A DNA stretch of 64,000 nt from Escherichia coli (GCF_048403405.1 NZ_CP183129.1); one strand, 5' to 3'. Positions 8,911-12,526 are shown, counted from the first letter of the stretch. Numbers and translations: made by a program. The notes: generated by a model not told the origin, from the sequence alone.

Positions 8911-10275
8911 ATGAACGATTATAAAATGACGCCAGGTGAGCGACGCGCGACCTGGGGTTTAGGGACCGTATTCTCGTTGCGCATGCTGGGCATGTTTATG
9001 GTTCTGCCGGTTCTGACCACGTACGGCATGGCTCTGCAAGGTGCCAGCGAAGCATTAATCGGTATTGCCATTGGTATTTATGGTCTGACTCAGGCCGTTT
9101 TTCAGATTCCGTTTGGCCTGCTTTCCGACCGCATTGGTCGCAAACCATTAATTGTCGGTGGGCTGGCAGTGTTTGCCGCCGGTAGCGTTATCGCTGCGCT
9201 CTCTGACTCCATCTGGGGAATTATTCTGGGCCGGGCGCTACAAGGCTCCGGTGCGATTGCCGCTGCCGTTATGGCGCTGCTTTCCGATCTCACGCGCGAA
9301 CAAAACCGCACCAAAGCAATGGCGTTTATCGGCGTGAGCTTTGGCATTACCTTTGCCATTGCGATGGTGCTTGGCCCGATCATCACTCACAAACTTGGGC
9401 TGCACGCGCTGTTCTGGATGATCGCTATTCTGGCAACAACCGGCATTGCGTTGACCATTTGGGTTGTGCCCAACAGTAGCACTCACGTACTTAATCGTGA
9501 GTCCGGAATGGTGAAAGGCAGTTTCAGTAAAGTGCTGGCGGAACCGCGGCTGCTGAAACTCAACTTTGGCATTATGTGTCTGCATATTTTGCTGATGTCG
9601 ACGTTTGTTGCCCTGCCAGGGCAACTGGCTGATGCGGGATTTCCGGCGGCTGAACACTGGAAGGTCTACCTGGCAACGATGTTAATCGCCTTTGGCTCGG
9701 TCGTGCCTTTCATTATCTACGCTGAAGTTAAGCGCAAAATGAAGCAAGTCTTTGTCTTCTGCGTCGGGTTGATCGTGGTTGCGGAAATTGTGTTGTGGAA
9801 CGCACAAACGCAGTTCTGGCAACTGGTGGTCGGCGTGCAGCTTTTCTTTGTGGCGTTTAATTTGATGGAAGCCCTTCTGCCTTCACTTATCAGTAAAGAG
9901 TCGCCAGCAGGTTACAAAGGTACGGCGATGGGTGTTTACTCCACCAGCCAGTTTCTTGGCGTGGCGATTGGCGGTTCGCTGGGCGGCTGGATTGACGGCA
10001 TGTTTGACGGTCAGGGGGTATTTCTCGCTGGCGCAATGCTGGCCGCAGTGTGGCTGGCAGTCGCCAGTACCATGAAAGAACCGCCGTATGTCAGCAGCTT
10101 ACGCATTGAAATCCCGGCGGACATTGCCGCAAACGAGGCGTTAAAAGTGCGTTTGCTGGAAACTGAAGGCGTCAAAGAAGTGTTGATTGCAGAAGAAGAA
10201 CATTCAGCTTATGTGAAAATCGACAGCAAAGTGACGAATCGCTTTGAGGTTGAACAGGCAATTCGTCAGGCATAA
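8911..10275 (+). CDS. yajR: MFS transporter YajR (454 aa)
   Basis: Internal ATG at 8911 of ORF 8713..10275 (MNDYKMTPGERRATWGLG...); 12-TM MFS-like protein with a soluble C-terminal domain. Confidence 0.9.
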   Translation: MNDYKMTPGERRATWGLGTVFSLRMLGMFMVLPVLTTYGMALQGASEALIGIAIGIYGLTQAVFQIPFGLLSDRIGRKPLIVGGLAVFAAGSVIAALSDSIWGIILGRALQGSGAIAAAVMALLSDLTREQNRTKAMAFIGVSFGITFAIAMVLGPIITHKLGLHALFWMIAILATTGIALTIWVVPNSSTHVLNRESGMVKGSFSKVLAEPRLLKLNFGIMCLHILLMSTFVALPGQLADAGFPAAEHWKVYLATMLIAFGSVVPFIIYAEVKRKMKQVFVFCVGLIVVAEIVLWNAQTQFWQLVVGVQLFFVAFNLMEALLPSLISKESPAGYKGTAMGVYSTSQFLGVAIGGSLGGWIDGMFDGQGVFLAGAMLAAVWLAVASTMKEPPYVSSLRIEIPADIAANEALKVRLLETEGVKEVLIAEEEHSAYVKIDSKVTNRFEVEQAIRQA

Positions 10276-10289
10276 AAAACGAGGCGAAT

Positions 10290-10385
10290 TGCCTGCTGCG
10301 CTACGCTTACCAGGCCTACAAAGTTCCTGAGTTATAAACCTTTGTAGGCCGAATTAGCTGTTCATGCTGCATTCGGCATGAACAA
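10290..10385. repeat. REP-like palindromic repeats between convergent yajR and yajQ
   Basis: Two imperfect palindromes visible: ggcctacaaag...ctttgtaggcc and ttcatgc...gcatgaa. Confidence 0.55.
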
Positions 10386-10402: not shown

Positions 10403-10894
10403 TTAATCGCGGAAGTTTTTGAACTGGAACGGCTGACCGAGATCGCCACCACGTACCATCGCCATGACAGCCTGCAAATCATCACGAGATTTACCCGTTA
10501 CGCGGATCTCATCGCCCTGAATTTGCGCCTGCACTTTCAGTTTGCTGTCTTTGATCATCTTGACGATTTTCTTCTGGGTCGCACTCTCAATGCCCTGTTT
10601 CAGTTTCGCTTCCACAAACCAGGTTTTACCGCTATGAACGATATTTTCCGGTACATCCAGCGAACTGCCTTCAATGCCGCGCTTCAGCAGCTTGGCACGC
10701 AGAATATCCAGCAACTGATTGACCTGGAAATCGGACTCGCTCAACACTTTGATGGTTTTGCTGGCGTCGTTCAGCTCAAATGAGGCTTCAACATTACGGA
10801 AGTCAAAACGGGACTCCACTTCGCGGCTCGCGTTATCGACCGCGTTACGTGCTTCCTGAAGATCAACTTCAGAGACAATATCGAAAGATGGCAT
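10403..10894 (-). CDS. yajQ: Nucleotide-binding protein YajQ (UPF0234 family, 163 aa)
   Basis: Internal ATG at 10894 of ORF 10403..11062 ([20 protein letters not shown]...). Confidence 0.9.
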
Positions 10895-10972
10895 CTTTTC
10901 CTCTCCCTTCATTTTTGATGCGAAGCATAATACCTGCAAAGTTAAATAACCAACAGTCCTGCACCAGGACGT

Positions 10973-11018
10973 ATCCCTTAATTGTGCATAGTCGCAACAG
11001 CATGCACAATTAAGGGAT
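10973..11018. promoter_or_regulatory. Perfect 17-bp inverted repeat in the yajQ/panE divergent intergenic region
   Basis: atcccttaattgtgcat - 12 nt - atgcacaattaagggat; the arms are exact reverse complements. Confidence 0.6.
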
Positions 11019-11061
11019 AGCCTTATTGAACACCCGGAGTGGTTGCGGGTGAGGAGGAACA

Positions 11062-12526
<1,465 letters not shown>

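Follow-up and report, generated by a model that had tools for sequence, protein, structure and literature searches.

A perfect palindrome between yajQ and panE of Escherichia coli is a published RNase III hairpin and probably holds divergent promoters

The perfect palindrome in the yajQ-panE spacer of Escherichia coli is an already published RNase III hairpin and not the binding site of an unknown regulator. It is probably a lineage-specific hairpin insertion of about 54–61 bp acting at two levels, RNA and DNA. At the RNA level, a stem of 18 perfect base pairs (22 when extended) forms on transcripts crossing the spacer, chiefly on a long yajQ leader starting about 100 nt inside panE, and its cleavage by RNase III, demonstrated by experiment, raises the half-life of yajQ mRNA from about 3 to about 6 min. 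At the DNA level, weak mirror-image σ70 hexamers in the arms would start panE-yajL at position 11017 and, at 10975, a secondary transcript of yajQ. Four elements of this account come from the literature and were mapped onto the window, that is, the whole 64-kb stretch of DNA that was analysed: the cleavage by RNase III, its effect on the stability of yajQ mRNA, the 5’ ends, and the divergent transcripts that overlap. Beyond these, we infer the assignment of the hexamers, that the ancestral −10 box of panE was replaced, and that the cut frees the yajQ Shine-Dalgarno sequence (SD).

Extent of the palindrome and the RNase III hairpin

The arms of the repeat are 18 nt long and 100% complementary, with 12 nt between them. 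The preliminary description had reported a perfect inverted repeat of 17 bp; the existence and the exact complementarity of the repeat stand, and its length is corrected to 18 nt per arm. The 12-nt separation and the location between the starts of yajQ (10894, minus strand) and panE (11062, plus strand), in a spacer of 167 bp, were confirmed on the sequence and on the annotation of MG1655 (NC_000913.3), which agrees on the identities of both genes and gives the neighbourhood as thiI, yajL, panE, yajQ, yajR. The parts of the element are as follows.

10972–10989: left arm, TATCCCTTAATTGTGCAT
10990–11001: loop, the 12-nt spacer between the arms, AGTCGCAACAGC
11002–11019: right arm, ATGCACAATTAAGGGATA, holding the published RNase III site (MG1655 444573, window 11004)
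10966–11023: stem-loop in its extended form, about 22 bp (AGG.C. + arm / arm + G + CCT), from folds and alignments

Beyond the perfect arms the stem gains four further pairs across one bulge and one mismatch (10966–11023), and the same segment is the approximate extent of the lineage-specific insertion in the alignments. The RNA fold of 10960–11065 has an energy of −40.8 kcal/mol (z = −5.0). The earlier remark that such a repeat is unlikely by chance is borne out: the analytic expectation for arms of at least 18 nt in the window is 2.6e-5, and the palindrome is the longest perfect inverted repeat of the 64 kb. The runner-up has arms of 11 nt, and in 20 simulated windows the longest arms measured 9–12 nt. 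Even with up to 3 mismatches allowed, the arm sequence has no second occurrence in the window, and none of 100 shuffles yielded two matches.

The palindrome occupies 444558–444605 in MG1655. Since the window and MG1655 are collinear over 10777–11277 (8 SNPs, none of them in 10966–11023), coordinates can be converted exactly as window x = 11061 − (MG − 444516). Of 5426 complete E. coli genomes, 5424 have the yajQ-panE spacer, each in a single copy.

Gordon, Cameron and Pfleger (2017; mBio 8:e00128-17, PMC5371410) list the RNase III site “Intergenic (panE-yajQ) 444573”. This coordinate maps to window 11004, inside the right arm, and therefore the palindrome is the published hairpin; the view that nothing had been described for the site is superseded. 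The RNA-seq signal at the site is small, with 96 reads in the rnc mutant versus 2–3 in the wild type. Purified RNase III cut T7 transcripts of both strands spanning the whole spacer, and the cuts were mapped by 5’ RACE. In the wild type yajQ mRNA had a half-life of about 6 min, as against about 3 min in the rnc mutant, and no change in panE mRNA stability was seen. The authors remark that complementary hairpins give very similar structures on the yajQ and panE strands, which is what a perfect palindrome yields. They treat the object as a hairpin of the yajQ 5’-UTR without relating it to start sites, and mention neither the lineage-specific insertion, nor the panE start site inside it, nor the flanking pairing discussed below (all PMC5371410).

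RNase III accommodates about 22 bp, and a continuous stem of about 20–22 bp, roughly two helical turns, is expected of its substrates; the 18 perfect and four additional pairs give such a stem. The suggestion of a stable hairpin in a 5’ leader thus proved right on three counts: the stem-loop is known to be cleaved by RNase III, a documented yajQ-sense transcript carries it, and in Citrobacter the stem shows the pattern of G·U changes described below.

Start sites, proposed mirror-image promoters and the long leader of yajQ

SMRT-Cappable-seq (Yan et al. 2018, PMC6131387, Supplementary Data 2) places the start of panE-yajL at 444560 reverse (window 11017, plus strand) and yajQ starts at 444602 forward (10975, minus strand) and 444657 forward (10920, minus strand). 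The proximal start, 444657, has 79 and 92 reads, and that at 444602 is supported by one dataset. For panE, an independent dataset (Conway) gives the 5’ end 443783 in NC_000913.2, which is window 11018, 1 nt from 11017; the Conway coordinates are second-hand, taken from rows of Table S1 of Huang et al. 2020 (PMC7373196). The supplements of Cappable-seq 2016 contain no rows for the yajQ-panE locus. Mapping of the yajQ and panE starts had been proposed as a check in the preliminary description; public maps put the starts 11017 and 10975 at the outer ends of the palindrome arms. This implies core promoters inside the palindrome, which that description did not foresee. As for the downstream gene, the yajL frame overlaps the end of panE by about 40 nt (window 11930–11973; annotated as 38 nt in MG1655), in keeping with the panE-yajL operon of SMRT-Cappable-seq. 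The promoters and transcripts considered are listed below.

10982–11017, plus: inferred core promoter of panE-yajL, TTGTGC (10982–10987), 17 nt, CACAAT (11005–11010), start 11017
10975–11009, minus: putative secondary yajQ promoter, TTGTGC (11009 to 11004), 17 nt, CACAAT (10986 to 10981), start 10975
10920–10932, minus: proximal main yajQ promoter, −10 box TATTAT (10932 to 10927), start 10920 in SMRT-Cappable-seq and in the weight-matrix scan
11168–11173, minus: −10-like TACAAT of a candidate intragenic distal yajQ-sense promoter, start predicted at 11161 by the weight-matrix scan
10895–11160, minus: long yajQ leader carrying the whole hairpin as RNA and overlapping panE mRNA by 142 nt, from the Conway, MS-115 and p19 rows of Table S1 of Huang et al.
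11051–11064, minus: anti-Shine-Dalgarno (anti-SD) segment by thermodynamic prediction, with the hairpin lying between it and the yajQ SD

The starts 11017 and 10975 occupy mirror positions, 21.5 and 20.5 bp from the dyad centre and 42 bp apart. Each strand reads TTGTGC, 17 nt, CACAAT and then 6–7 nt to the start, so each −10 box overlaps the −35 box of the other strand. On both strands the hexamers have the σ70 spacing of 16–18 bp with A2 and T6 in the −10 box, and the primary 5’ ends, expected 6–8 nt from the −10 box, lie at 7 nt (11017) and 6 nt (10975). A weight-matrix scan of 10860–11230 ranked the palindrome promoter best on the plus strand and among the top three on the minus strand, and predicted the starts 11017, 10974, 10920 and 11161, as compared to the observed 11017, 10975, 10920 and 11160. 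The hexamers themselves are weak on both strands (TTGTGC matches 3 of 6 positions, CACAAT 4 of 6), scores of at least 6 occur about once per 315 bp per strand, and a standard promoter and terminator scan, under whose threshold the palindrome hexamers fall, found no promoter. Because the hexamers are weak and such scores common, the argument is based on the match to mapped 5’ ends and not on the score. Counted from the base of the stem, both ends (11017 and 10975) fall 3 nt within it, just before G-C pairs, where stalling of reverse transcriptase is possible; Cappable-seq selects triphosphate ends and removes incomplete cDNAs.

The DNA of the palindrome probably holds back-to-back promoters. 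Overlapping back-to-back divergent promoters reportedly form an older category (Beck and Warren 1988), and the palindrome pair would fit it. The bidirectional promoters of Warman et al. share −10 elements and have divergent starts 7–25 bp apart, most commonly 18 bp. The palindrome resembles that class in that a symmetric sequence allows divergent initiation from one short segment, to which RNA polymerase binds either way; assignment to the class was rejected, since the starts are 42 bp apart and each −10 box overlaps a −35 box and not the other −10 box.

The hairpin is absent from transcripts starting at 11017, 10975 and 10920, and hence the in vivo substrate of RNase III could only be a minor long leader or read-through RNA. 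Rows of Table S1 of Huang et al. 2020 (PMC7373196) bear on such a leader. They contain a p19 dsRNA cluster at the panE 5’ end, 443437–443776 (NC_000913.2; window 11025–11364), the Lybecker 2014 dsRNA “MS-115, Divergent, 443638-443836” (window 10965–11163), and a Conway 2014 operon row with a plus-strand promoter at 443641 and a 142-nt overlap, 443641–443783, with the panE transcript. According to these rows, a yajQ-sense transcript starts at about 11160 inside panE, runs antisense over the panE start and includes the complete palindrome. TACAAT (11173–11168, minus strand), a near-consensus −10 box, lies 7 nt upstream of this start. By published coordinates the stem is therefore present in cellular RNA: the start at about 11160 and MS-115, both as tabulated in these rows, are joined by the rnc reads. 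The hairpin is retained in both the minimum free energy and the centroid folds of the 269-nt long yajQ leader, the fold of the entire leader being not unusual (z = −1.8).

As far as the rows of this table go, the locus appears in all three surveys of overlapping divergent operon 5’ ends (Lybecker 2014, Conway 2014, and the p19 study of Huang 2020) as a “Divergent” overlap of 142 nt. It differs from other dsRNA overlaps in that an intramolecular 22-bp hairpin adjoins the intermolecular duplex. In the same rows, p19-captured dsRNAs of 21–22 nt and antibody-captured dsRNA span the first approximately 300 nt of panE on both strands (11025–11364), which shows sense-antisense pairing of panE mRNA with the long yajQ leader. 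Given this captured dsRNA, panE may itself be regulated through antisense RNA or RNase III.

The long leader includes the antisense of the SD and start codon of panE (11051–11064), which is predicted to pair with the SD and start of yajQ (10892–10907), with probabilities of 0.34–0.69, about 0.6–0.7 over the core pairs, and a duplex energy of −11.9 kcal/mol. The yajQ SD has a mean unpaired probability of 0.19 within the long leader; cutting the 3’ arm raises it to 0.55, and in the short mRNA starting at 10920 it is 0.98. An RNase III cut would disconnect the anti-SD from the SD, which could explain the stabilisation of yajQ mRNA. The same logic operates in the adhE 5’-UTR, where the cut relieves an occluded ribosome-binding site and raises stability or expression (PMC5371410, PMC9032294). 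Unlike adhE, the occlusion of yajQ is a prediction only, the occluder is the antisense of the SD of a neighbour gene, and most mRNA comes from a short-leader promoter that needs no processing.

A wider reading, which we put forward only tentatively, makes the Escherichia hairpin the hinge of a post-transcriptional switch combined with shared, mutually exclusive mirror promoters. The intragenic TACAAT, created by a synonymous TGC>TGT change in a Cys codon of panE (11173–11168), would make the long yajQ leader, in which the antisense of the panE SD and start would act as an anti-SD on the yajQ ribosome-binding site. RNase III cleavage of the intervening hairpin would sever the anti-SD, free translation and stabilise yajQ mRNA. 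On the DNA, the insertion would have replaced the ancestral panE −10 box with mirror promoters 42 bp apart, RNA polymerase on one gene excluding the other, and only where the RNAs of the two strands, or the two promoters, both count would the palindrome be perfect.

Origin of the insertion and the stem in the Citrobacter freundii complex

Using PanE, we retrieved and compared 80 loci of other Enterobacteriaceae. Most genera have 41–42 nt between a conserved −10-like box, CGCTATACT, and the ATG of panE. An extra 54–62 bp directly after the box is present in Escherichia (E. coli, E. whittamii, E. albertii) and in 11 loci of the C. freundii complex. The element is absent in 66 of the 80 related loci, among them those of Salmonella, C. 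koseri, Klebsiella and Enterobacter, and C. amalonaticus has the same type of spacer without the insertion. Conservation was another check proposed beforehand: the perfect repeat is found in Escherichia, the C. freundii complex has the repeat only in an imperfect form, and most other relatives lack the element. The TATACT box directly before the element is retained in the C. freundii complex and destroyed in Escherichia, where the ancestral CGCTATACT has mutated to CCTGCACC (TGCACC matches the −10 consensus at 2 of 6 positions). This decay fits with initiation having shifted into the insertion. A small hairpin now occupies the ancestral site.

10956–10970: small hairpin GTCCTG-CAC-CAGGAC on the ancestral CGCTATACT site, from alignments

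The “terminator-like” match of the standard scan is this hairpin; the T-rich run that follows it is broken by G’s. The hairpin also holds TGCACCA, a perfect NtrC half-site, in a spacer with a 41% NtrC SELEX peak (PMC8743547).

Other lineages carry unrelated sequence nearby. In seven Kluyvera loci (L064, L066-L068, L071, L073, L074) an insertion of 20–40 nt lies at the same point and separates the −10 box of panE from the leader hairpin, suggesting that indels are frequent where panE transcription starts. Raoultella (L057) has 50–80 nt of extra sequence, placed before the box in the alignment, and Intestinirhabdus (L049) has extra spacer sequence with no recognisable box.

Within E. coli, 5346 of 5424 genomes are identical over 60 bp. 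The one that was looked at among the 78 differing genomes carries an IS insertion and not a point variant. In E. coli 13TMH22, IS1203 lies inside the right arm directly after CACAAT (about 11010) and parts the proposed −10 box from panE; in NZ_LT883142.1 another IS3-family element lies between yajQ and the palindrome (about 10948). The two insertions, both of the IS3 family, are independent and fall in the same 167-bp spacer. The arms are identical in E. albertii, E. whittamii and 18 metagenome loci retrieved by the flanks alone, and the only part of the 48 bp that varies within Escherichia is the loop (G>A at 10994). The metagenome loci show one loop variant and one flank variant; as all are of the Escherichia type with identical arms, they give no signal of covariation within the genus. 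Between E. coli and E. albertii, about 2.4 substitutions are expected over the 48 bp and none is observed, which is not significant alone (Poisson P about 0.09).

TACAAT, found in 4 of 81 sequences, is nearly exclusive to Escherichia; in the other genera TGCAAT or TGCAGT predominates, through a synonymous Cys codon. The yajQ-sense transcript across the element may accordingly be Escherichia-specific, judging by this box. That would fit a palindrome which is perfect, and foldable on both strands, only there, the comparison covering two lineages only. As to the source of the element, neither a donor sequence nor a second copy was found in the window or in 83 loci. It was not found in phages, and matches in plasmids are mislabelled chromosomes. 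A REP, BIME, ERIC or MITE element was rejected, given one locus per genome in 5424 E. coli genomes (E ≤ 1) and the lack of a second copy in the window or the 83 loci.

The element of the C. freundii complex is homologous and imperfect. The stem alignment comprised 12 distinct sequences (3 from Escherichia, 9 from the C. freundii complex) and 23 pairs, and the two strands compare as follows.

Pair cells forming a standard pair: panE-sense 89.3%; yajQ-sense 76.2%
Pairs kept by one-sided G·U changes: panE-sense 7; yajQ-sense 0
RNAalifold consensus energy: panE-sense −12.9 kcal/mol; yajQ-sense −3.4 kcal/mol
Single-sequence folds, Citrobacter: panE-sense −22.7 to −32.5 kcal/mol; yajQ-sense −10.5 to −21.7 kcal/mol
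Single-sequence folds, Escherichia: panE-sense about −30 kcal/mol; yajQ-sense about −30 kcal/mol

The G·U cells of the panE-sense strand are A·C on the opposite strand. In addition, two pairs at the top of the stem show compensatory double changes between the genera, A-U to G-C and U-A to C-G. Because G·U pairs are maintained on one strand and compensatory changes are present, the alignment bears the signature of selection on an RNA stem in the Citrobacter panE leader. None of the 12 sequences departs from the core ATTGT/ACAAT, a segment within the proposed hexamers, the outer stem being variable.

The ompA mRNA has a stabilising stem-loop at its 5’ terminus. The hairpin of the C. freundii complex would be similar, beginning a few nucleotides from the start predicted by the retained TATACT box; in E. 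coli, unlike the ompA case, the mapped panE start is at the 3’ end of the hairpin.

Several further features of the spacer and its surroundings were observed. A 6-bp hairpin CACCYG...CRGGTG (11031–11051, plus strand) abuts the panE SD (11052–11057) and is kept in 22 diverse Enterobacteriaceae. One of its pairs has changed from U-A to C-G (in E. coli and one Citrobacter) via U·G intermediates, and it has no Rfam match; it may be a leader structure controlling or protecting panE mRNA. Upstream of yajQ (window 10917–10942), most Enterobacteriaceae (L059, L064, L080 and others) have an inverted repeat of 8–10 bp, (TT)GCGTTGCA-TAATACC-TGCAACGC(AA), whose loop is the yajQ −10 box (TATTAT on the yajQ strand). 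By its form the repeat looks like an operator over the main yajQ promoter; Escherichia as well as the C. freundii and C. amalonaticus groups have it in degenerate form (GATGCGAAGCATAATACCTGCAAAG). Finally, two perfect 11-nt inverted repeats at 10255–10295 and 10313–10350, the former beginning in the 3’ end of yajR, lie in or near the convergent yajR-yajQ intergenic region and are probably the terminators of yajR and yajQ.

Alternative explanations and biological meaning

The mirror start sites and the same TTGTGC-17-CACAAT arrangement on both strands might mean that the palindrome is essentially only a symmetric divergent promoter, whose arms serve as −35 and −10 boxes and in which RNase III cleavage of rare read-through RNA is incidental. 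The invariant ATTGT/ACAAT core within a varying outer stem, and the main transcripts lacking the hairpin, agree with this. However, symmetry of the hexamers needs about 6 + 6 bp and not 18 + 18 perfect pairs with a 4-bp extension, a role in DNA only leaves the one-strand G·U maintenance of the Citrobacter outer stem unexplained, and the stability of yajQ mRNA is measurably affected in the rnc mutant. We regard this explanation as rather unlikely. It is quite improbable, too, that the hairpin is a stabilising or processing stem-loop of the panE 5’ leader in E. coli, as in Citrobacter, the ends 11017/11018 and 10975 being processed ends or reverse-transcriptase stops. These ends do lie beside GGG/CCC pairs, 3 nt inside the base of the stem, and the C. 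freundii complex does keep the TATACT box just upstream, with a stem that folds well only in the panE sense. In Escherichia, however, the corresponding box is TGCACC, the only candidate upstream is moderate (score 6.52, predicted start 10949), and no mapped panE start lies upstream of the palindrome. Moreover, the ends come from a method that picks triphosphate ends and drops incomplete cDNAs, the second dataset agrees within 1 nt according to the rows in Table S1 of Huang et al., and panE stability was unchanged in Gordon et al. (PMC5371410).

An operator of a dimeric transcription factor, the other possibility named in the preliminary description, would suit the perfect dyad symmetry in a divergent promoter region, and genomic SELEX of NtrC gave a 41% peak in the panE/yajQ spacer (PMC8743547). 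A literature search on protein binding in the spacer found nothing beyond this weak peak. The NtrC consensus TGCACCAnnnTGGTGCA is matched only by the half-site TGCACCA (10960–10966), outside the palindrome, so an NtrC operator was rejected. Neither the consensus nor the binding of a factor was found on the repeat, nor is its DNA symmetry conserved with the target genes: Salmonella, Klebsiella, Enterobacter and most Citrobacter have both genes and lack the element, and where the Citrobacter element is present its DNA symmetry is broken and pairing at the RNA level is kept. Nor are 18-nt arms, with 30 bp between their centres, typical of a dimer operator. The suggestion is thus left without support, and we hold it to be very improbable. 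Still less credence is due to a neutral mutational by-product, a hairpin insertion perfected by an intrastrand template switch and then tolerated. The indel does lie where other genera have unrelated insertions, the Citrobacter version is imperfect, and conservation in Escherichia is not significantly above the spacer background; but use of the element is shown by the 5’ ends mapped to it, by its cleavage by RNase III and by the change in half-life, and in Citrobacter the compensatory changes and the G·U pairs maintained on one strand point to selection. Two further candidates were rejected. The stem is not an intrinsic terminator, being A+T-rich, lacking a T-run after it on either strand and lying between divergent starts. 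A permissive scan for Rfam families gave two chance-level snoRNA matches at E > 7, none of them on the palindrome.

The lineage-specific insertion acting as both RNase III stem and divergent promoters therefore remains the explanation that we prefer. As the role of RNase III was published in 2017 and the 5’ ends are in public start-site tables, the element adds little, and not much is at stake physiologically, panE acting in pantothenate synthesis and yajQ coding for a nucleotide-binding protein. What is new is modest, namely the origin by insertion, the loss of the ancestral −10 box, the strand-asymmetric selection on RNA in Citrobacter, the proposed mirror-image promoters and the possible release of an anti-SD. 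More generally, even a conspicuous perfect palindrome in a region of divergent promoters may be something other than an operator for a protein. The locus would be a compact example of promoter turnover, in which a hairpin was inserted exactly on the ancestral panE start, the −10 box decayed in Escherichia and initiation moved inside the insertion. The release of the anti-SD, in turn, would offer a testable account of the unexplained positive effect of RNase III on yajQ.
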